A stretch of 63,701 bases of DNA, the filler included, from Thermoplasmatota archaeon (GTDB taxonomy: Archaea; Thermoplasmatota; E2; JACPAO01; JAHFTW01): NCBI GenBank assembly GCA_041623215.1. It is 4 parts of 4 records of this genome, joined end to end, with 100 filler letters (N's around TTAATTAATTAA, not from the genome) between each part and the next. Parts side by side here need not be neighbours in the genome. Positions count along the whole stretch, not along the records: positions 36,778 to 54,719 come from JBFJXH010000028.1; 3 more parts are not named here. One strand, given 5' to 3'. Numbering within the stretch: the first letter of the stretch is position 1; each line of letters begins with the position of its first letter. The translations under genes were made by a program, and so were the position numbers. This document shows, one piece after another, positions 36,678 through 47,469 of the stretch. Below the pieces are notes generated by a model. The model was given only the letters and a program-made list of their open reading frames with translations. It was not told the DNA's origin and did no database searches.

Positions 36678-36777
36678 NNNNNNNNNNNNNNNNNNNNNNN
36701 NNNNNNNNNNNNNNNNNNNNNTTAATTAATTAANNNNNNNNNNNNNNNNNNNNNNNNNNNNNNNNNNNNNNNNNNNN
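36678..36777. other. Artificial contig spacer
   Basis: N44-TTAATTAATTAA-N44. Confidence 0.97.
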
Positions 36778-36778
36778 C

Positions 36779-37933
36779 CAGAACACTGGCGAGCGCTTTG
36801 AAACTCCAATTCCGGGGCACGCCTGGGAGGACAACGGGCCCAACCACATCATGCGGACCTTCATGGACCGCTACGCGCTTCGCGCCGAAGGTGGCCGGTT
36901 TGGATGGTACAGCACCTCCGAAAGCGAGGACTGGGCAAGCCACTGCGAAACCGTCCCGACCCTTGTCTACGCGGCGTCGAACGACCCCTTCGGGAACGCG
37001 CCGCCCCACTTCTTCGGCGGCTCGGACTACCATGACACGGCTTTCTCGTACGTCATCTACTACTACGAGTGGTCCCGCCTGGTACCCATGGATGCAGTGT
37101 TGCCAACAATGAGTGCCACCAATGTGGACGACCCTACCGGAACCTGTCTGTACTTCGACCGCGACGAATACGAGGGCTTCGGCCAGGGCACGGAAGACCA
37201 CCCTTGTGCGACGGAAGAAGCCCAGTGTAAGATTGGCTACGATGAGAGCGTGGAAATCGAGACCGGCGTCGGCCTGTCGCCCTCCCCGTGGATGTACTCG
37301 TTCGGCCCCTTCCGCCACTTCCAACTGGCAGACGCCCTAAAGCTGCAAATCCTGCGCTGTGACTTGGCTACCAACGACCCCAACACTGGCCACCCCATTC
37401 GGCCTGGCCAGATTGTTGGTTCCCAGGGTGACAGCGATCTCGTGTTGATCGGCGATGGCCTCGGCCCCTGGAAGGGTGAGCTCATCTTCGATTCCAACAA
37501 TGGTGAAGGTTGCCTGCCACTATTGGACCAATCGAGTAACCTCATCAACCTGAGGCCCTCGACGAGCAGCAACTCGCCCTGTGGCGGCGGCGACTGTCAA
37601 GCGACGACCCCTGGTGCGATTCTGCTGAGCCAAAAGGCCAAGGACTCCTGGATGGCGCCCGTGTTCGACACCAGCGACCGGCCCTTTGCCAGCACCATTG
37701 CGGTGATGTGCGCGGGCATGGCTGGGTACTACTTCGACGCCACGGAAGACCCCGTCAACAAGGGTTCGCCGTACGGCTGGCTCGTGGCCCACATGTCGGA
37801 CTACGACTGGATTGTTCTGGCTGCCGCCAACGACCCCGAAATCATTTCGTGGGGTCTTGAACCGGCTAACCAATCGGACGTCGGCTACGGCAACTCCGGT
37901 TGCCAAGACTTCGACGGCGATCTGACCAACTAA
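36779..37933 (+). CDS. Cys-patterned secreted-family protein, paralogue 1 (5'-truncated)
   Basis: Frame open from the contig edge (QNTGERFETPIPGHAWEDNGPNHIMRTF...); aligns by eye with the four following genes; 10 Cys. Confidence 0.9.
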   Translation, partial: QNTGERFETPIPGHAWEDNGPNHIMRTFMDRYALRAEGGRFGWYSTSESEDWASHCETVPTLVYAASNDPFGNAPPHFFGGSDYHDTAFSYVIYYYEWSRLVPMDAVLPTMSATNVDDPTGTCLYFDRDEYEGFGQGTEDHPCATEEAQCKIGYDESVEIETGVGLSPSPWMYSFGPFRHFQLADALKLQILRCDLATNDPNTGHPIRPGQIVGSQGDSDLVLIGDGLGPWKGELIFDSNNGEGCLPLLDQSSNLINLRPSTSSNSPCGGGDCQATTPGAILLSQKAKDSWMAPVFDTSDRPFASTIAVMCAGMAGYYFDATEDPVNKGSPYGWLVAHMSDYDWIVLAAANDPEIISWGLEPANQSDVGYGNSGCQDFDGDLTN

Positions 37934-37945
37934 GCTCGCCGAGCA

Positions 37946-37971
37946 CCTTTTTCCCTTTCTTCCCCTTCCTT
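37946..37971 (+). terminator. Pyrimidine-rich putative terminator after paralogue 1
   Basis: Pure T/C tract just after the stop; similar tracts follow all five paralogues. Confidence 0.55.
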
Positions 37972-38043
37972 GGATCGTTCCCGAATTTTTGTTCGAAGAC
38001 CGCCGATTGAGGCCCACGCGGCCTTTGATTTCGTCAGCTGAGC

Positions 38044-38107
38044 GCATGTAGTTAAGAATAGGAAGCCGTAGGCCACCTGTAGCGCGGCGATAGCCGCTCT
38101 TAGGTGA
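38044..38107 (+). promoter_or_regulatory. Promoter GCAT-N3-GTTAAG and SD AGGTGA of paralogue 2
   Basis: Same motif and spacing recur before paralogues 3 and 4. Confidence 0.65.
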
Positions 38108-38113
38108 TGAATC

Positions 38114-39442
38114 ATGTCTCGAACCCTGAAAATGGTGGCCGTGGTGGCCATGGCGATGCTGACAATGCCGCTTGTGGCGGCCGATTTTCAAGATGGCAAC
38201 TACGTTGCATCCTTCACCAGTGGCGGCGTGACGACGGAAGAGCGCGGCGAAGAGGTTCTGCACGGTCATCCCTGGGAACAGGCAATGCCAGGCATGGTTA
38301 TGCGCACATTCTTTGACCGAATTTCCACGCGGACGGAAGGGCGTGTGGGCTGGTACACCACGCAGTCGGCTGAGGAGTCGGAAGCAAACTGCGACAATGT
38401 CCCCACGGCGTCCTTCGTGTACGACACGGCCGCCTACCCTAATCCGCCCCTGTTCGTTGATGACGCCTTTGCCTGGCTGCCGCCTAATTTCTTTGGCGGC
38501 AATGACTACGACGAAGAGGGCTATCTTCTACTGTCCTTGTACAACGAGTACAATCGCATGATTTCCCTGGATGCGCTAGCACCCACCACTTACGGCCAAC
38601 ACCAAGATGATCCCACCAACTGTCTCTACGTTGACCGCGATGACACGGCGGGCTTTGGCCAAGGCAGCGAAGACCATCCCTGCAAAACGGGTGAAACGGA
38701 GTGCCGGATTGGTGCCGAAGAAGACACCACCATCGACGTAGGCCCGGGCTTCGGCGTCTCGGCATGGCAATTCGCCAAAGGCCCGTTCCGCCACTTCCAG
38801 CTCAACGACCTGCAGCAACTGGCCGTTCTCCAGTGCGACTTAGTCGTGCGGGACCCCACAACCGGCGATGTCATTCGGCCGGGCCAGATTGACGGCATTC
38901 TAACAACCACGGAAGGCGACGATGTAACCATCATCTTTGATGATGGCCTGGACCCCGGATTGAACGGCGTGGACTTGTACTACTCGCCGGCGGGTGCAGG
39001 GTCCAACGCCTGTGTGTCCCTCATCGACGAAACCTCCAGCTGGATTAATCTCAATTCAGGAACCAGCAGCGGGCCCTGCAACGTGCATGACTGCGTCATG
39101 GGCAACACGGGAGCCATTGTCCTGAGCGACAAGGCCCGCGAATGGCTTCCGAGTGCCGGCACTGAGAGTCGCAATGGCAACAACTACGGCCGCCCCTTCG
39201 GTAGCACCATCGCCGTGGTTTGCGGGTCCATGGGGGGCTACTACTTCGTTGCTGACGAAGACCCGGCCAACATCGGTTCGCCCCTGGGCTGGGCGGTCGT
39301 GCACCAATCGGACTACGATTGGTTTGTGCTCTACAATGCGGATGACCTGGAGATGGTCACCTGGGGCCTCAATCAGCAGCATGTTAGCGCTGTGCCGGGG
39401 GCTGGGGGGACACTGAACCAGGGCTGCGCCGAATTCGCGTAG
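38114..39442 (+). CDS. Cys-patterned secreted protein, paralogue 2
   Basis: Signal peptide ending PLVAA/DFQDGNY; 10 Cys; no C-terminal TM. Confidence 0.92.
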   Translation: MSRTLKMVAVVAMAMLTMPLVAADFQDGNYVASFTSGGVTTEERGEEVLHGHPWEQAMPGMVMRTFFDRISTRTEGRVGWYTTQSAEESEANCDNVPTASFVYDTAAYPNPPLFVDDAFAWLPPNFFGGNDYDEEGYLLLSLYNEYNRMISLDALAPTTYGQHQDDPTNCLYVDRDDTAGFGQGSEDHPCKTGETECRIGAEEDTTIDVGPGFGVSAWQFAKGPFRHFQLNDLQQLAVLQCDLVVRDPTTGDVIRPGQIDGILTTTEGDDVTIIFDDGLDPGLNGVDLYYSPAGAGSNACVSLIDETSSWINLNSGTSSGPCNVHDCVMGNTGAIVLSDKAREWLPSAGTESRNGNNYGRPFGSTIAVVCGSMGGYYFVADEDPANIGSPLGWAVVHQSDYDWFVLYNADDLEMVTWGLNQQHVSAVPGAGGTLNQGCAEFA

Positions 39443-39443
39443 A

Positions 39444-39474
39444 TTCTCCATCCTTCTCCTTCTCCTTCTCATCC
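39444..39474 (+). terminator. Pyrimidine-rich putative terminator after paralogue 2
   Basis: TTCTCCATCCTTCTCCTTCTCCTTCTCATCC directly after the stop. Confidence 0.5.
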
Positions 39475-39519
39475 GACCTAGGGCCATGCCGCGCCCGCCG
39501 GACCACCGGATTGCCCCAC

Positions 39520-39582
39520 GCATAGCGTTAAGGGGGGTGCCATTGATGCGGCATTTGGGCGGGTGTGACTTGCCCTAGGTGA
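39520..39582 (+). promoter_or_regulatory. Promoter GCAT-N3-GTTAAG and SD AGGTGA of paralogue 3
   Basis: TTAAG 61 nt and AGGTGA 12 nt before ATG 39589. Confidence 0.65.
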
Positions 39583-39588
39583 ATGCAT

Positions 39589-40914
39589 ATGAATCGAACG
39601 TTCAACACTCTTGCCGCAGCCCTGGCGCTACTTGTGGTGGCACCGCTTGCGGCGGCAGACTTTGAGGATGGCAACTATATCGCATCGTTTTCCAGCGGGG
39701 GTCAGTCGGAGTCCGAGCGTGGCGAGTCGCCCATTGCGGGCCATCCGTGGGAAGAAGACATGCCGGGCATGGTGATGCGCACATTCTTTGATCGCATCTC
39801 CACCAGGACAGAGGGCCGCATCGGCTGGTACACAACGCAATCCGCTGAAGAATCCGAAGCGAACTGCGACAATGTCCCCACGGCGTCCTTTGTATACGAC
39901 ACGGCCGCCTACCCTAATCCGCCCCTGTTCGTTGATGACGCCTTTGCCTGGCTGCCACCCAACTTCTTCGGCGGCAATGACTACGACGAGGAAGGCTACC
40001 TTGTGCTGAGCTACTACTATGAGTACAATCGCATGGTTTCTCTGGATGCTCTGGGGCCGAGCTTGGCGGGGCAATACCAAGAGGATCCCACCAATTGCCT
40101 TTACGTGGACCGTGACGACGCTGCCGGATTTGGCCAAGGCAGCGAAGACCATCCCTGCAAAACGGGTGAAACGGAGTGCCGGATTGGTGCCGAAGAGGAC
40201 GCTACAATTGACGCTGGCGTCGGCTTCGGTGTATCGGCTTGGCAGTATGGCAAGGGCCCCTTCCGCCATTTCCAGTTGAATGACCTACAGCAGCTTGCCA
40301 TCTTGCAATGTGACTTGGTTGTGCGGGACCCGACGTCGAGCGACGTCATCCGGCCCGGTCAGATTGACGGCATTCTCACGACCACCGAAGGCGGTAGCCT
40401 CATCTTGACCGGAGACGGCCTTGATCCTGGACTCAACGGTGTGGACCTGAACTTCGCGCCCGCCGGCGCCGGATCCAATGCCTGCGTGGAACTCATCGAT
40501 GAAAACAGTGAATGGATCAATCTCAATTCCGGAACCAGTGGCGGTCCTTGCAACGTTCACGATTGCGTGATGGGCAACACGGGTTCGATTGTGGTGAGCG
40601 AAAAGGCACGCGAGTGGCTGCCGGCCGCAGGGGAAGAGACCCGCAACGGTAACAGCTATCTTCGTCCCTTCGGCAGTACGATCGCCGTGGTGTGCGGGGC
40701 CATGGGTGGGTACTACTTTGTGGCTGACGAAGACCCGCTCAACAAAGGCTCCCCGCGCGGCTGGGCCGTGGTCCACCAATCCGACTACGACTGGTTTGTG
40801 TTCTACAACACGGACGACCTCGAAATGGTGAATTGGGGAGCGGACCGGTCTCACGTGGTAGCCTCGCCCGGCTTTGGCGGCTCCCTGAACCAAGGCTGCG
40901 CCGACTTCGCGTAG
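39589..40914 (+). CDS. Cys-patterned secreted protein, paralogue 3
   Basis: MNRTFNTLAAALALLVVAPLAAA/DFEDGNY; closest to paralogue 2; start chosen by SD spacing (ATG 39583 alternative). Confidence 0.92.
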   Translation: MNRTFNTLAAALALLVVAPLAAADFEDGNYIASFSSGGQSESERGESPIAGHPWEEDMPGMVMRTFFDRISTRTEGRIGWYTTQSAEESEANCDNVPTASFVYDTAAYPNPPLFVDDAFAWLPPNFFGGNDYDEEGYLVLSYYYEYNRMVSLDALGPSLAGQYQEDPTNCLYVDRDDAAGFGQGSEDHPCKTGETECRIGAEEDATIDAGVGFGVSAWQYGKGPFRHFQLNDLQQLAILQCDLVVRDPTSSDVIRPGQIDGILTTTEGGSLILTGDGLDPGLNGVDLNFAPAGAGSNACVELIDENSEWINLNSGTSGGPCNVHDCVMGNTGSIVVSEKAREWLPAAGEETRNGNSYLRPFGSTIAVVCGAMGGYYFVADEDPLNKGSPRGWAVVHQSDYDWFVFYNTDDLEMVNWGADRSHVVASPGFGGSLNQGCADFA

Positions 40915-40986
40915 ATTCCCCTGCCTCTTCCCCCTCATCCGCCCCAGGGCACTGCTCGCCCGCCACTGAGTGATGCTGGCCCCCAG

Positions 40987-41049
40987 GCATATGGTTAAGG
41001 CTGATACTCAGGATGGCCGGCATGGGCGGGCAAGACTTGCCCTAGGTGA
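40987..41049 (+). promoter_or_regulatory. Promoter GCAT-N3-GTTAAG and SD AGGTGA of paralogue 4
   Basis: TTAAG 61 nt and AGGTGA 12 nt before ATG 41056; GACTTGCCCTAGGTGAA shared with paralogue 3. Confidence 0.65.
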
Positions 41050-41055
41050 AGACAC

Positions 41056-42306
41056 ATGAATCGAACGCTCAGAACCCTCGCCGCTGCAGTCGTGGCACTC
41101 ATGATTGCACCCTTGGCGGCCGCCGACTTCGAAGACGGCAACTACGTCGCATCGTTTACGATTGACTCCTCCACGGGCGACCGGACCGAGGAGCACATCC
41201 CGGACCATCCGTGGAACCAGAACCCTCCTTCCATGATGATGCGCACATTCATTGACCGATTCACGTCGCGCACCGACGGTAGGTTGGGCTGGTACAGCAC
41301 GGCCGATGCGGAGGACTGGCAAACGCAGTGTGACAACGTGCCGACTCTGAGTTACTTCTACTGGTGGTCTGACCTTCTTGGCTACGTCCCCCCGAACTTC
41401 TTCGGCGGCAACGATTACGATGAAGAAGACTACCTGATTCTCGGCCTGTACTTTGAGTACTACCGCATGATTCCCCTCGATGGGCTTGGCCCCAGCACGA
41501 CGGGCAAGTACGTTGAGGATCCCACAAACTGCCTCTACTTCGATCGGACTGCCACGGCGGGCTTTGGCCAAGGCGACGAGCCTCATCCCTGCGCGTCCTC
41601 CGAAATCTCGTGCCGCATCGGCGCCGAAGAGGACACGGAAATTGATGGCGGCATCGGCTTTGGCCCATCCGCTTGGATGTACCCCAAGGGACCGTTCCGG
41701 CTGTTCCAGCTGGCAGAACACCAGAAGCTGGCGGTGCTCCAATGTGACCTCATCATCGAGGACCCAACAAACGGAAACATCATCCGCTCTGGCCAAATTG
41801 CAGGCGTCACCCAGGATGCCCAGGATGGGCCATTTGGCGAAGTCTTCGGGGACAGTCTCATCTATCAGCCCAGCGCGGGTGCAGGGCCTTGCGAGGTTCT
41901 GATTAATCAGGACAGCGACTGGATTAACCTCGTCGTTGGTGGGAGTGCTGGGCCCGGTGCTTGCAACTGGGGTAGTGCAAGCTGCGTGATGGGCACGGAA
42001 GGCGCCATCATCATGAGCGAGAAGGCCAGTGCTTGGCTGCCCAAGAGCGGCGAAGGCCGTCCCTTTGCCAGTACCATCGGCGTTATGTGCGCCAACATGG
42101 CTGGCTACTACTTTGACGCCGGCGCAACGACGCCCGGTGGAAAGGAGCCATGGGGCTGGCTGGTTGCCCACCTGTCGGACTACGATTGGGTTACGTTCTA
42201 TGAGGCAACCGACACGACCTACATCGAATGGGGCCTTGACCCGGCGCACATGTCCAATGTGAGCGACACGAGTCAAGGTTGCGCGCACTTCACCGCCTCC
42301 GAGTAG
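41056..42306 (+). CDS. Cys-patterned secreted protein, paralogue 4
   Basis: MNRTLRTLAAAVVALMIAPLAAA/DFEDGNY; 10 Cys in the same register. Confidence 0.92.
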   Translation: MNRTLRTLAAAVVALMIAPLAAADFEDGNYVASFTIDSSTGDRTEEHIPDHPWNQNPPSMMMRTFIDRFTSRTDGRLGWYSTADAEDWQTQCDNVPTLSYFYWWSDLLGYVPPNFFGGNDYDEEDYLILGLYFEYYRMIPLDGLGPSTTGKYVEDPTNCLYFDRTATAGFGQGDEPHPCASSEISCRIGAEEDTEIDGGIGFGPSAWMYPKGPFRLFQLAEHQKLAVLQCDLIIEDPTNGNIIRSGQIAGVTQDAQDGPFGEVFGDSLIYQPSAGAGPCEVLINQDSDWINLVVGGSAGPGACNWGSASCVMGTEGAIIMSEKASAWLPKSGEGRPFASTIGVMCANMAGYYFDAGATTPGGKEPWGWLVAHLSDYDWVTFYEATDTTYIEWGLDPAHMSNVSDTSQGCAHFTASE

Positions 42307-42335
42307 GCGCATGAATCTGGCCGGACCCGGCCAAA

Positions 42336-42359
42336 TCTTTCCCTCTTTTCCTTTCCCTT
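42336..42359 (+). terminator. Pyrimidine-rich putative terminator after paralogue 4
   Basis: TCTTTCCCTCTTTTCCTTTCCCTT preceded by a short GC inverted repeat (GGCCGG AC CCGGCC). Confidence 0.55.
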
Positions 42360-42509
42360 GCGGCCGCTGGCCCGGTAACTGGCATGAATCACGTGCTACC
42401 CCGGCCAGCTAGAGCAGGCAGCTAATTTCATTTGCCGCCTTGCAAACCTCTTTTACTGCGCTCGCTTCTGCTAGGGGTAGGCGGCTTGTCCCCTGTAGGT
42501 GTGATGAAC

Positions 42510-43838
42510 ATGAACTTCCTGACTCGTAGCGCGTGTGCGTTCCTGATTGTTCTCTCGATGGCGCTCGTGCCGTTGGCGGGAGCGTCCCATGGCCCGTGGC
42601 ACAACTCAGACGGCAACTACAACGAACCCAACAGTGCTGGCCACCACAATGACAATCTCAATCTGGGAGCCGGCTTGCTTTCGCGTACCTTCATGATTCG
42701 CTGGGGAAGCGAGATTGACGGGCGCTACGGTTGGTACAGCAATGACGCCGACGACGGTTGGGCAAACGAATGTAACAACTACATGCTCGACGACCGATAC
42801 AAGGAATACAAGGAGGATATTCACGACCCTCTGCTAGAGCCACAGTTTGTGATTCCACCAATCCCCGATTCGCTGTTTGGGGATGACCACGACAACCGCA
42901 ACTACGACGGCATCAGCTACTACTACGAATATCACCGCACGGTCCACAAGGACGTCCGTGGGACACAGGTCAGCGGCCAAAACGTCGCCGACCCGACAGG
43001 TTGCGGCTACGTGGACCGTGGGGAATCCGCTGGCTTTGGGCACGGCAACGAAAACCCCTGCGATGACTGCCGTATTGGCATCGACGAGGATGGCACGTTG
43101 GCCACCGGTATTGGCTTCCAATTCTCGGCGCTCATCGCCACTGGCGGCCCCTTCCGCAGCTTCCAACTGGAAGGCGAACGCAAGGCGTCCATTCTGGCAT
43201 GCCAACTCGTCATCCTGGACCCAATCAGCGGCAGCCCCCTGCGTGGTGGCCAGATTCACGGCACAACCACCAGTGAAGGTGACGATGTCGTGCTGGTGGG
43301 CGATGGTCTGGACCCCGGCGTCTTCGGCCAGGACCTAGAATTCGGTGCCCTGCAAGGGCCTGGCAACAACCCCTCCGAGTGGGCCGATCGGGGCGACGGC
43401 GGCCGCTGCAAGAAGATTCTGGACCAGGAGGACCCTGCCTTCCGTATTCGCGAGCAGGTAAGTGCCAATGGACCCGGCATGGGAACCGACGGGGGCACCA
43501 TCATCACGGACCAATCGGCCTGGGTTCCCGACTGGAGCTACGTAGGTGTGACCTGCGCCCGCATGGGCATGTGGTTCTTCGACCCGGTACGCGACCAGCA
43601 GGCCTACGATGAGAGCGGCGGCCACGTGGACTCGCCGTACGGCTGGACCAAGGTGTACCGGTCCGACTACGACTGGGTGACCTACCCGTCCCATGGTGAC
43701 ACGGACTACTATTCGTGGGCGTACCAGAGCAATCACATGTCCACCGTGGGCTACCGCGACCAAGGATGCGCCCATTTCTCCAAAGAAGATGGCGACCCCG
43801 GCGATGGCGACCTAACCGACGCCGCTGCTACCACCTAG
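42510..43838 (+). CDS. Cys-patterned secreted protein, paralogue 5 (most divergent)
   Basis: Signal peptide; retains DGNY, RTF, GRYGWY, YYYEY-x-R, DPT-x-C, GFG-x-G, GPFR-x-FQL, SPYGW, SDYDW, QGCAHF; 8 Cys in the mature part; ATG 42504 alternative. Confidence 0.9.
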   Translation: MNFLTRSACAFLIVLSMALVPLAGASHGPWHNSDGNYNEPNSAGHHNDNLNLGAGLLSRTFMIRWGSEIDGRYGWYSNDADDGWANECNNYMLDDRYKEYKEDIHDPLLEPQFVIPPIPDSLFGDDHDNRNYDGISYYYEYHRTVHKDVRGTQVSGQNVADPTGCGYVDRGESAGFGHGNENPCDDCRIGIDEDGTLATGIGFQFSALIATGGPFRSFQLEGERKASILACQLVILDPISGSPLRGGQIHGTTTSEGDDVVLVGDGLDPGVFGQDLEFGALQGPGNNPSEWADRGDGGRCKKILDQEDPAFRIREQVSANGPGMGTDGGTIITDQSAWVPDWSYVGVTCARMGMWFFDPVRDQQAYDESGGHVDSPYGWTKVYRSDYDWVTYPSHGDTDYYSWAYQSNHMSTVGYRDQGCAHFSKEDGDPGDGDLTDAAATT

Positions 43839-43848
43839 GTGAATCATG

Positions 43849-43869
43849 TCTTTCTTTCTCCTCTTCTTC
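43849..43869 (+). terminator. Pyrimidine-rich putative terminator after paralogue 5
   Basis: TCTTTCTTTCTCCTCTTCTTC. Confidence 0.5.
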
Positions 43870-43905
43870 AACAACCGTTTTCAATAGGTAGACGACCCCA
43901 GGCTT

Positions 43906-46900
43906 GTGGTGTTAGCTCCTGGCCGGGCCTTGGCCTTCGCGTTCCTGATTGCAACTGCGTCGCTACTAGTGGCGGTGCCAGATGCCTATGCAGGTGCCCA
44001 TGGGGGTCGTGAGGTTCCGCTGGCCGCTTCGGACGCGGCTCGCGACTTTGTTGGCAGTGCGGATTCCGGCGCGGGGACCAGTGCCCGTGGGCTTGGCGCA
44101 AACCTTGCCAGTGTCCAAGTGTATGGCACCGACTACGCCTTGAGTCAAACCAGCTCCTTATGGGAGGACGCGCAAAAGGCTGCTGACCCCGCGCGGGAGT
44201 ATCGGAGTCAACTGGGTAGTATTCTCTTGCAGGCTGAGGCCCGTTTGGCGGGCGCCCGTGCTGCCTTCCTCGAATCCGTTGACGGCGGGGTTGACCGGAG
44301 TACATTCCAAGATCACCTAGCCGCAGCTAATCTGCTCGTGCTGGCTGATGCCGATCTTACACAATTTCGGTTGCAATCGTGGGATGCGCTGCAAGAAGAC
44401 CCTGACCAGGTGTATGCCGTCGCTAAGCGTATCAGCCTGTCATCGCCCCTGTTTACGGGTCAGGTGCTGTCGGAAGCAGCCGCGGGGGCGGCGGCGGTTC
44501 TACCCGCAGCCACCGGCCCGATGCTCGACTTGCAGCAGATGGCCGACCATTTGCCGGCAAGCGCGCTAGCCGGGGGCGAAAACGTCATTCTCGCCCTGGC
44601 CCGCCAGACCAATGACCGGGCACAGGCCATGATTGCTAACGAGCTGCCCAGGGAAATTGCGCAGCGCAACATCACGGCGTCCACCATTCTCGATGCCATC
44701 CAACTCGAAATTGACAATTTTGCGGCGCCGGGCAGCCTCGCCCGTGCCGGCTGGGCCACGACGTGGGCCGATGAAGTGGAGCGCGGGGCCAGTTGGTGGG
44801 TGGTGCACAACCGCGATGTTGAGCCCATCAAGACGGTGGCCGGCTCCCTGTACACCTGGGCGCTTCTGAAGGCCACGGCAGAGGAATCGGAGATGTTGCT
44901 GGAGGTCTACGGAGGCGAAGAGCGCGGCATCCCTGGCCCCGGCATCGCTGCCCTTCTCGTGGGGCTTCTGGGCTTGACGCGGTCCCCGCGCGGTCGCATT
45001 GTGGCTGGGCTTTTGGTTGGCCTAGCCATACTCACCCTCCTTGTTCCCGGAGGCTCGGCTCAGCCCTACTTGGTCAGTGATCCCGTTGCCCCGGCGCTGT
45101 TTGGGCACTCCACTAGCGATGATACTGGCTTGGTTCACTTTGTCTACATGGATACGGCTGCAGCCTCGAACAACTTCATTCAGTACCGCACCTATGACCC
45201 AATTTTGGACCGCTGGAGCGATGCAAGCGCCGTAGCGTTCCCGGGCGCCGAGGCAATCCGGGGCGAACCCCATATTTTCTCCAAGGGCAACAGGCTTGAC
45301 TTGTTCTGGACCAGTCAGGAGTCTGGCGGTCAAGACCCCGAAGCCTACTATCCACACACGTGTCGGCTCGTGGATGGCGCGTGCGGCATGGTCGAAGCCG
45401 TGGGTCGCCCGGATCACGCGGTCCGCGACCGAGCCGAGGTGGTCTATGGTGCGGACGACGGCGTCCTCCATACTGCTTGGCTCGAGGAGGCAGACCGTGA
45501 ACTGAATGAACACATCGTGCAATATCGCTACCGCGGCGCTGACGGCTGGATGGCACCCATTACGTTTGACACGGGCTCCAGGAACCAGTCTCACCCGGCG
45601 CTTGCGGTGGACGCCCGTGGCACGGCCCACATGGTGTGGCACGAAATGGATCCGGCCGTCCACTGCACGCCCTACTTGGTTGGCTGCCCGACTCGCATCA
45701 TGTACGCTCAGATTCCTGCCGGGGCTGCGGGACCCGCTCGGCTTGAAGAACTCGAGCATGACCCCGGGGAACGCCCAGCGCCCGCAGTTGCGTTGGCAAT
45801 TGAGGATGGCACAATCCACCTCGCCTATGGCGTCAAGTTCGGTCCCTTTGACCTGGACCCTGGCAGGCTATACCATCGCATGAAGCCTGTCGATAGCGGG
45901 TCGTGGAGCGAGCCGGTCTCCGTGCCGCATTACGAGCGCTCGGCAGCCAGCTACATCAGCTTCGATGTCAACGACGACGGGGTCATCATGATGTGGCACG
46001 AAACCAGTGAAGAATCTCCTGGATTCCAGGTCGCCCGGAGGACCGGCGGTCTCTGGCAACGGGCGGAGAACATCCTCGATAACCGGCTTGGTGCCCGCTT
46101 CACCGTGGCGGATCGGACGCCCGACGGGGTGCTACATTGGACATTCACGGGCACCGCGCCTGGAGATGGTCAGCCTCGCATCTACTACTTCCCTCACCTA
46201 GATATTCCTCCGTACCACCTGCCTGAAATTGCCGACGTTACGCCACCCAACGAAGTATGGGTTAATGACAACCCGCCTCGCGTTACGCTCCGTCCCATTG
46301 TAAGTCGAGCGATTGACTTGGAGGAGAGCAGAATCTTCGTCGACGGGATTCCCGTTAACATCCACCTCGAAGGCAATCTCTTGGTGAGTGAAGGGCTCAC
46401 CACGTTGCAGGACGGCAAGCATGCGGTGCGCGTTGTCCTCACGGATGTCGAAGGCGGAGAGGCCGAGGAATCGTGGTCCATGTGGCTTGACCGGCAACCC
46501 CCTTCCTTTGCTTGGAGCATCGAACTGGATAACGGGACCCCTGCGCGTGGCTGGCACGCAAGCCCTGTGTTCATCCGCCCGTCCGTTCAGCAAGACGGGT
46601 CCGCGTTTGCGTGGCTTGAAATTCAAACCAACGGCGGGCCATGGGAATACTGGGGCGACTCGGCACGAACCGAGTTCCAGATTCCCGAAGGCCGCCTGTG
46701 GACCATGCGGATGAGGGCCATTGACCAGGCCGGTAACGTCAACCTCGGGGACCCTGTGTCTGCAGGGTGGGATGATGACGCTCCCGTCATTGATCCCCCT
46801 ACCGCTCAATGGGGCCGGCCGGGTGCTGTGTTGCAATTCACATCGCCAACGCTGGGTAATGGCTCAAGTGTCGAGGCGCTGGTGGAACTGGTGCTGGCAG

Positions 46901-47469
46901 ACGGGCGCACGGTGAGCATCCCGTCGGTCCGCTTCGCGGAGCGAGATGGCTTTCGAATTACGCTACCTGAGGCACCTAGTGGCGACCATCAAGTCACCGT
47001 GGCATTGCAAGACCTTGCAGGCAACAGCGCCAACTTTGGCCCCTGGGCCCTACCGTATGACGTAGATGCGCCGCGCCTGTCGGCGACGCGAGGTGGAACC
47101 GGGGTCCTCGTCGCAGCCGAGGATGGGGAGAGCGGGCTCGTGAGTATCAAGGCGACCATGCGTGGCCGGGAATGGATTGAAGTTGGTCAAGGCGCCGCCC
47201 GGCTGGCACTCGACTTGCCTGAATTGGATGATGAAGTGCTGGTCACGGCGGTGGATGTAGCGGGCAATGCCATTACCCGTCTGTTGACTGTGGATGGCGA
47301 CCTGATTGAGGCCCCGCAGGACTCCCCGGACGGTGGTGCAACAGACGGCCACGCAGGTGCCCCGGGCGGCGACCCGGCGGGGGACGGAAACGGAATCCCC
47401 GTGCCTGGGGTGTTTGCGGCCGCTTTGCTGTTGGTTGGGGCAGCCTACGTCGGTCGCGCCCGCCGGTAG
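43906..47469 (+). CDS. Large surface protein: helical domain, internal two-TM hairpin, beta-propeller, Ig-like repeats, C-terminal anchor
   Basis: Signal peptide; internal GIPGPG-TM-RSPRGR-TM-GSAQ; about 7 blade-like repeats (VHFVY, LDLFW, LHTAW, AHMVW, IHLAY, VIMMW, LHWTF); three D-x-AGN Ig repeats; terminal GIPVPG-TM-RARR. Confidence 0.85.
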   Translation: MVLAPGRALAFAFLIATASLLVAVPDAYAGAHGGREVPLAASDAARDFVGSADSGAGTSARGLGANLASVQVYGTDYALSQTSSLWEDAQKAADPAREYRSQLGSILLQAEARLAGARAAFLESVDGGVDRSTFQDHLAAANLLVLADADLTQFRLQSWDALQEDPDQVYAVAKRISLSSPLFTGQVLSEAAAGAAAVLPAATGPMLDLQQMADHLPASALAGGENVILALARQTNDRAQAMIANELPREIAQRNITASTILDAIQLEIDNFAAPGSLARAGWATTWADEVERGASWWVVHNRDVEPIKTVAGSLYTWALLKATAEESEMLLEVYGGEERGIPGPGIAALLVGLLGLTRSPRGRIVAGLLVGLAILTLLVPGGSAQPYLVSDPVAPALFGHSTSDDTGLVHFVYMDTAAASNNFIQYRTYDPILDRWSDASAVAFPGAEAIRGEPHIFSKGNRLDLFWTSQESGGQDPEAYYPHTCRLVDGACGMVEAVGRPDHAVRDRAEVVYGADDGVLHTAWLEEADRELNEHIVQYRYRGADGWMAPITFDTGSRNQSHPALAVDARGTAHMVWHEMDPAVHCTPYLVGCPTRIMYAQIPAGAAGPARLEELEHDPGERPAPAVALAIEDGTIHLAYGVKFGPFDLDPGRLYHRMKPVDSGSWSEPVSVPHYERSAASYISFDVNDDGVIMMWHETSEESPGFQVARRTGGLWQRAENILDNRLGARFTVADRTPDGVLHWTFTGTAPGDGQPRIYYFPHLDIPPYHLPEIADVTPPNEVWVNDNPPRVTLRPIVSRAIDLEESRIFVDGIPVNIHLEGNLLVSEGLTTLQDGKHAVRVVLTDVEGGEAEESWSMWLDRQPPSFAWSIELDNGTPARGWHASPVFIRPSVQQDGSAFAWLEIQTNGGPWEYWGDSARTEFQIPEGRLWTMRMRAIDQAGNVNLGDPVSAGWDDDAPVIDPPTAQWGRPGAVLQFTSPTLGNGSSVEALVELVLADGRTVSIPSVRFAERDGFRITLPEAPSGDHQVTVALQDLAGNSANFGPWALPYDVDAPRLSATRGGTGVLVAAEDGESGLVSIKATMRGREWIEVGQGAARLALDLPELDDEVLVTAVDVAGNAITRLLTVDGDLIEAPQDSPDGGATDGHAGAPGGDPAGDGNGIPVPGVFAAALLLVGAAYVGRARR

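Follow-up and report, generated by a model that had tools for sequence, protein, structure and literature searches.

Chaperone-usher pili and the type V pili of Bacteroidetes are built from paralogous subunits of immunoglobulin (Ig) fold, some minor ones bearing adhesin domains, and archaeal S-layer glycoproteins are exported, acidic and beta-rich. As described in two accounts, the cannulae of Pyrodictium (CanA/CanX) and the bundling pili AbpA/AbpX of the TasA superfamily consist of secreted, anchorless, beta-rich proteins from clustered archaeal paralogues, and their jelly-roll subunits are joined by Ca2+-driven donor-strand complementation (PMC12518558; bioRxiv 10.64898/2026.01.04.697558). 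These accounts also place 11 of 15 cannula-like proteins, as clustered paralogues, in two clusters (PMC12518558) and CanX homologues mainly in Thermoproteota (PMC12518558; bioRxiv 10.64898/2026.01.04.697558). Here we describe five tandem genes of a Thermoplasmatota archaeon (assembly GCA_041623215.1, hereafter G000), found in a 63,701-nucleotide window, the whole stretch of DNA analysed, which comprises four contigs joined by linkers. They represent a genuine but uncatalogued family, restricted to one order and with a likely role at the cell surface. We propose, with a probability of about 0.45, that the array proteins are exported, disulfide-locked beta-sandwich subunits, with neither anchor nor active site, that co-assemble into an accessory adhesive surface fibre or coat.

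The five open reading frames (ORFs) lie head to tail on the plus strand at the start of contig C28. Copy 1 (36779..37933) is cut at its 5' end by the contig edge; the missing start codon and signal peptide lie on contig C113 (L001:5225). Copies 2 (38114..39442; 442 amino acids, aa), 3 (39589..40914; 441 aa; alternative start at 39583) and 4 (41056..42306; 416 aa) each have 10 Cys, and copies 2 and 3 are 81% identical. Copy 5 (42510..43838; 442 aa; alternative start at 42504) is the most divergent and has 8 Cys in its mature chain. Pairwise identity among the five paralogues spans 35–81%. All the motifs that a sequence-only reading had listed for five head-to-tail paralogues proved to be invariant columns of the five-way alignment, and the fixed Cys register it described corresponds to eight invariant Cys columns; disulfide pairing is predicted. 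The same reading had called the proteins acidic and free of a membrane anchor, and indeed the mature chains carry a net charge of -37 to -45 and none of the five contains a long enough hydrophobic stretch (maximum 19-residue hydropathy 0.87–1.41). Export through Sec is predicted from signal peptides, assigned by eye in the array copies and their relatives. The ratio of non-synonymous to synonymous substitution rates (dN/dS) is 0.11–0.46 across all 10 copy pairs, rough values given that dS is near saturation. Of the 40 variants listed, out of 72 from related sequencing runs, 28 fall in the five genes, and 21 of these are silent and 7 are not, each scored singly. We conclude that five intact paralogues evolve under purifying selection. 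The two runs that contain most of the stretch, both marine metagenomes of a single study, may represent the source sample; none of the sequencing runs listed that contain the stretch is an RNA run.

Five is the full count of the array: contig C113 completes copy 1 and carries a MoxR/DUF58 operon upstream, and a membrane-anchored Ig-like gene lies downstream. The first 325 bases of C28 also occur on C113, with 3 differences, and contig-end overlaps of this kind are common in the assembly. Further copies beyond the contig edge, which the sequence-only reading had allowed for, did not materialise: upstream of copy 1 C113 holds the operon and no additional copy, and a sixth was not found elsewhere in the genome (88% complete). 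The operon (L014:1-4844, joined via an overlap to L001:1-5071) consists of a giant TSP3/Ig-like DUF4129 gene, DUF4350, a MoxR AAA ATPase, DUF58 and a gene for a 175-aa membrane protein. It is conserved across the order, and variable surface genes come after it. The downstream gene (43906..47469, plus strand; 1187 aa) encodes an Ig-like (Big_13) domain, ends in a hydrophobic-plus-basic anchor, and is a candidate tether.

Queries built from the five copies matched only their own genome in a 5.8-billion word search and in a HMMER scan of 1.84 billion representatives. They gave no match in 60 relatives, 400 genomes of the phylum, or scans of metagenome, genome and viral contigs, and nothing outside their own genome in the ESM Atlas or among PDB sequences. 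Relatives emerged by following the slot. In the congeneric genome G001, the 175-aa membrane gene is followed by one for a secreted, acidic Cys protein with, like three of the array genes, a TTAAG box upstream. A second G001 contig carries five more tandem members and a further partial one, possibly the missing end of the first slot member. The same slot in G001 has an array of at least six members. As a single sequence the first G001 protein had no significant match to the G000 profile, and significance was reached only with profile against profile. With hhalign the two arrays, stripped of signal peptides, could be aligned over their full length (global probability 86.8, E = 4.8e-7, score 37.6), against 5.7 ± 5.8 for 40 block shuffles (maximum 31.3) and 3.2 for the reversed control; the local score was 37.8 versus 19.3 ± 3.7 (maximum 34.2). 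Each array's profile ranks the members of the other above ~920 background ORFs, but only at E values of 0.008–0.17.

Profile iteration added genome G032 and then G023, G028, G029 and metagenome contig L149. A G023 member bridges the groups, combining RTF/GW/YYE-x-R motifs as in G000 with HDW/NGC motifs as in G001. The final 30-row profile holds 5 members from G000, 6 from G001, 3 from G023, 2 from G028, 12 from G029 (of 16 matches, four short fragments being dropped), and 1 each from G032 and L149. It matches 6 of 197 genomes of the class, all six among the 38 of one order and none among the 159 others, plus the one metagenome contig; these six genomes themselves fed the profile, and more divergent members would escape it. 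The scan of 1.84 billion representatives used the five-copy profile only, and the last word search returned a single G001 member, so the family's true range is under-sampled. A phylum-level match in G388 (E = 7e-5) was rejected, since it lies on the opposite strand of a gene that we take to be adenosylhomocysteinase-like. In the ESM Atlas the G023 member matched unnamed clusters of Acidobacteriota at 0.94.

Mature chains across the family have 300–420 aa and 6–10 Cys. G000 and G001 members share just 14–23% identity even though the two genomes are congeners, and in a tree the copies cluster by genome, with G001 forming two clades. This is repeated local expansion, genome by genome. Pfam gave no match for the five copies or 17 relatives, NCBIfam none above its curated cut-off, and PDB sequences no meaningful one for the copies or their relatives, which bears out the earlier impression of an unrecognised family. 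A literature search, with subscription papers and supplements outside its coverage, returned no description of such a family and none of the order's surface structures. We conclude that the family is uncatalogued and, within the genomes searched, restricted to one archaeal order. Standard searches failed to reveal it even from one species to another of the same genus, so that it marks a portion of the archaeal secretome overlooked by annotation, and it now has 30 aligned members and a foldable representative.

Conservation across the family is confined to Cys, Gly, Trp, Asp and Pro, and every column common to at least 26 of the 30 members is a Cys, Gly, Asp or Trp. Of the 30, 23 retain an HDW motif. 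Because its His is Tyr in all five window copies, there is no shared catalytic set, in agreement with the earlier failure to see a catalytic motif. With the 30-row alignment as input, AlphaFold modelled G029 member L163 as a nearly all-beta chain, with a predicted local distance difference test score (pLDDT) of 69 and a predicted template modelling score (pTM) of 0.68. Ig-like or related sandwiches make up most of the top rows of its VIA lists, with ~85–125 residues aligned over model range 1–273; ~170 residues of the model are unmatched by Ig-like structures. The model thus suggests an Ig-like core of ~100–115 residues interrupted by a large insertion. The nearest domains are Legionella DUF4785 (4kh9), the macroglobulin (MG) domains of complement C3/C4/C5 and alpha-2-macroglobulin, and the ZP module (Z 5.5–6.8, root-mean-square deviation (rmsd) 2.5–3.2 Å, 97–118 residues). 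With Z below 8, identity of 4–10% and about one third of the chain matched, these may denote no more than a common arrangement. The best-conserved window motifs map onto long strands of the model, whose first strand (RTF motif) belongs to the Ig-like region in the monomer. A two-copy complex model of L163 scored 0.00 in two runs, which is evidence neither way.

The sequence-only reading had likened the array to Pyrodictium cannulae, and this holds as an analogy only. The array proteins share with cannula and bundling-pilus subunits their being secreted, anchorless, beta-rich and clustered. Those subunits are jelly rolls; the matches listed for the L163 model are mostly Ig-like sandwiches at Z under 7, and an unlisted family may also fit. 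No PDB sequence matches, no cannula, TasA or bundling-pilus chain is among the best 50 matches in either VIA list, and TasA (PF12389) is absent from 5 of 5 family-bearing genomes tested (B. subtilis control positive). By analogy, the array proteins may nonetheless act in a similar mode. Chaperone-usher and type V pili resemble the family in having several paralogous beta-sandwich subunits, some with added domains; they differ in that no usher, lipobox or sortase motif was seen for the array, that neither its sequences nor, clearly, its fold match theirs, and that its host is an archaeon.

Sequons for N-glycosylation are scarce in most of the family, and the genome carries an STT3-family gene. 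The five copies have 2 sequons against 12.1 ± 3.2 in shuffles, the G001 members 0 against 10.2, and seven other members 2 against 12.5, statistics that are overstated because paralogues are non-independent samples. By comparison, observed/expected ratios in this genome, for heuristic protein classes, are 0.93 for cytoplasmic (n = 788), 0.94 for secreted (n = 154) and 1.87 for anchored proteins (n = 30), and 0.10 for the four complete array copies. Such a bare surface would suit subunits packed into an assembly, and it would also suit a binding role.

The survey of copy number and synteny that the sequence-only reading had called for shows what else the slot can hold. Among relatives in which the sequence could be read on past the MoxR operon, G003, G021, G022, G007, G015, L017 and L018 have secreted or anchored surface genes after it and no family member. 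The slot is a variable surface-gene island. In G037 it holds a secreted Cys-rich pair that we tried as family members and rejected, since it had no profile match; it forms a separate orphan family (L098:3434-4572 and L098:13221-14297; secreted, acidic, Cys-rich, ~360 aa), with one copy directly after the operon and none in any other genome of the order. Members of the array family adjoin anchored surface genes in G000, G023, G028 and G029, and one G023 member directly precedes a homologue of the 1187-aa downstream gene. In G029, G023 and G028 members are dispersed. Two G029 members have N-terminal domains, one of them an SBBP propeller, and the C termini of several members are extended by Cys-rich segments. 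Secreted IgGFc-binding/Kelch (L185:5738-8914) and Kelch (L176:14680-16479) proteins are encoded divergently beside members in G023 and G029.

TATA-like TTAAG boxes, of putative promoter function, lie on the plus strand 62 bases before copy 2 (38052..38056), 61 before copy 3 (39528..39532) and 61 before copy 4 (40995..40999); a box 30–85 bases upstream is found for 27 of 1508 predicted genes genome-wide. A pyrimidine-rich tract follows copy 1 (37946..37971, plus strand), similar tracts follow copies 2–5, and we regard them as likely archaeal terminators. These signals point to separate transcription of each copy. A scan for sigma-70 promoters and hairpin terminators was uninformative in this archaeal host. 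Codon bias is high in copies 1 and 5 (91st and 88th percentile) by a weak test against 10 reference genes picked heuristically. As the other three copies are average, codon bias leaves the role undecided.

In the fibre or coat that we propose, the subunits would be exported by Sec and oxidised, each with a disulfide-locked Ig-like core. They have no anchor, and therefore their retention needs protein contacts; edge strands and unglycosylated faces would let subunits hold each other, and the anchored Ig-like neighbours would tether the assembly. Paralogues would vary their exposed loops, and the fused versions would be minor subunits displaying propeller or Cys-rich domains. Several observations weigh against this proposal. 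Extra domains at both termini are awkward for a simple polymer made by terminal donor strands. Only 2 of 12 surveyed members adjoin an anchored Ig-like surface gene, 2 others adjoin secreted Kelch proteins, and the rest follow no pattern. The window protein itself, modelled from the five-row alignment, reached a pLDDT of 29, so the fold is transferred to it across ~15% identity. Foldseek found no match to the L163 model at E ≤ 0.001 in the PDB and viral libraries, and its best VIA match (Z 6.8, rmsd 2.5 Å, 107 residues) falls below 8, in the range that the tool treats as a common arrangement. G029's 12 members show no sequon avoidance (22 against 26.0), and the non-independence of paralogues noted above applies to the other groups. 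Copies 1 and 5 lack a TTAAG box, and copies 2–4 have average codon bias (52nd–59th percentile). An ambitious form of the proposal, a new archaeal fibre class in which a disulfide-locked, unglycosylated Ig-like heteropolymer of genome-specific paralogues, unrelated to TasA, type IV pilins or S-layers, is tethered by anchored Ig-like proteins, assisted by the MoxR operon and fitted with propeller-bearing minor subunits, is doubtful.

The main rival is that the proteins do not polymerise and are soluble or loosely bound monomers recognising a glycan, particle, partner cell or virus, with copies diversified by ligand. Fast divergence between congeners (14–23% identity), the patchy range (6 of 38 genomes), dispersed copies, propeller or Cys-rich tail fusions, the Ig-like resemblance and the average codon bias of three copies all suit such binders. 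However, an anchorless monomer would be expected to diffuse off a marine cell, the almost complete lack of sequons in three of the four groups suggests that a mostly bare surface is required, and dN/dS stays below 0.5 in all pairs; we regard binders as possible, if somewhat unlikely. A secreted enzyme, enzyme inhibitor or antagonistic effector could draw on an unrecognised fold in the ~170 unmatched residues and on the HDW motif of 23 members, but the His-to-Tyr change in the window copies, the lack of any Pfam, NCBIfam or PDB sequence match and the absence of small immunity-like genes between the array ORFs inspected make this improbable. A confident full-length match to a characterised enzyme or S-layer family, which the sequence-only reading had named as grounds for refuting its proposal, was found neither by sequence nor by Foldseek at E ≤ 0.001. 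Could the proteins instead be substrates of an extracellular matrix cross-linked by lysyl oxidase (PF01186)? Such genes occur in 22 of the 38 genomes of the order, with up to 7 matches, and one lies directly upstream of a member twice, in G023 (L010:13373-14515) and on contig L149 (L149:3-584); that of G000 (C60:8714-9181) is not beside the array. Against this, the oxidase shows no association with the family (4 of 6 family-bearing versus 18 of 32 other genomes), and the window proteins have only 4–8 Lys each with no Lys column conserved, which renders the idea very improbable. Least credible of all is the cell's main S-layer or an essential wall. The proteins are secreted, acidic and beta-rich and lie beside anchored surface genes, yet they lack an anchor, occur in 6 of 38 genomes and avoid sequons while anchored proteins are enriched in them, features in which they also depart from archaeal S-layer glycoproteins. 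Of the earlier suggestion that the array encodes an envelope component, one part thus stands, namely a secreted anchorless family in a slot that holds surface genes in relatives, and an essential layer is unlikely because of the patchy range and the sequon avoidance. If polymerisation is true, the family is a new class of archaeal filament; otherwise it is still a new, fast-evolving family of surface-binding proteins.

Minor features of the locus and its surroundings complete the picture. The artificial linker between contigs C27 and C28 occupies 36678..36777, and the DNA to its left is not the array's true neighbour. Copies 2 and 3 share three identical tracts of 29–68 bases, which hint at gene conversion. 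At 43836-43888, a ribosome-binding motif and ATG resembling those in front of the array genes overlap the stop of copy 5 and begin a frame of 13 codons inside the pyrimidine tract; this frame may be chance or a remnant. The 1187-aa gene (43906-47469) has an anchor-like hydrophobic stretch also in mid-protein, and in G001 (L009:963-4309) two genes encode its halves, both ending in an anchor. Among the top four matches listed for named MoxR relatives, three are from Thermoplasmatota; one publication mentions three domains of the operon together. Contig L018, titled Proteobacteria, has the gene order of the Thermoplasmatota contigs L015 and L017 with a MoxR identity of 61%, and is probably mislabelled. 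Elsewhere in G000 (C10:13868-15997), two tandem secreted, acidic, Cys-rich ORFs of 324 and 385 aa, with no match to the family profile, are possibly another orphan pair.

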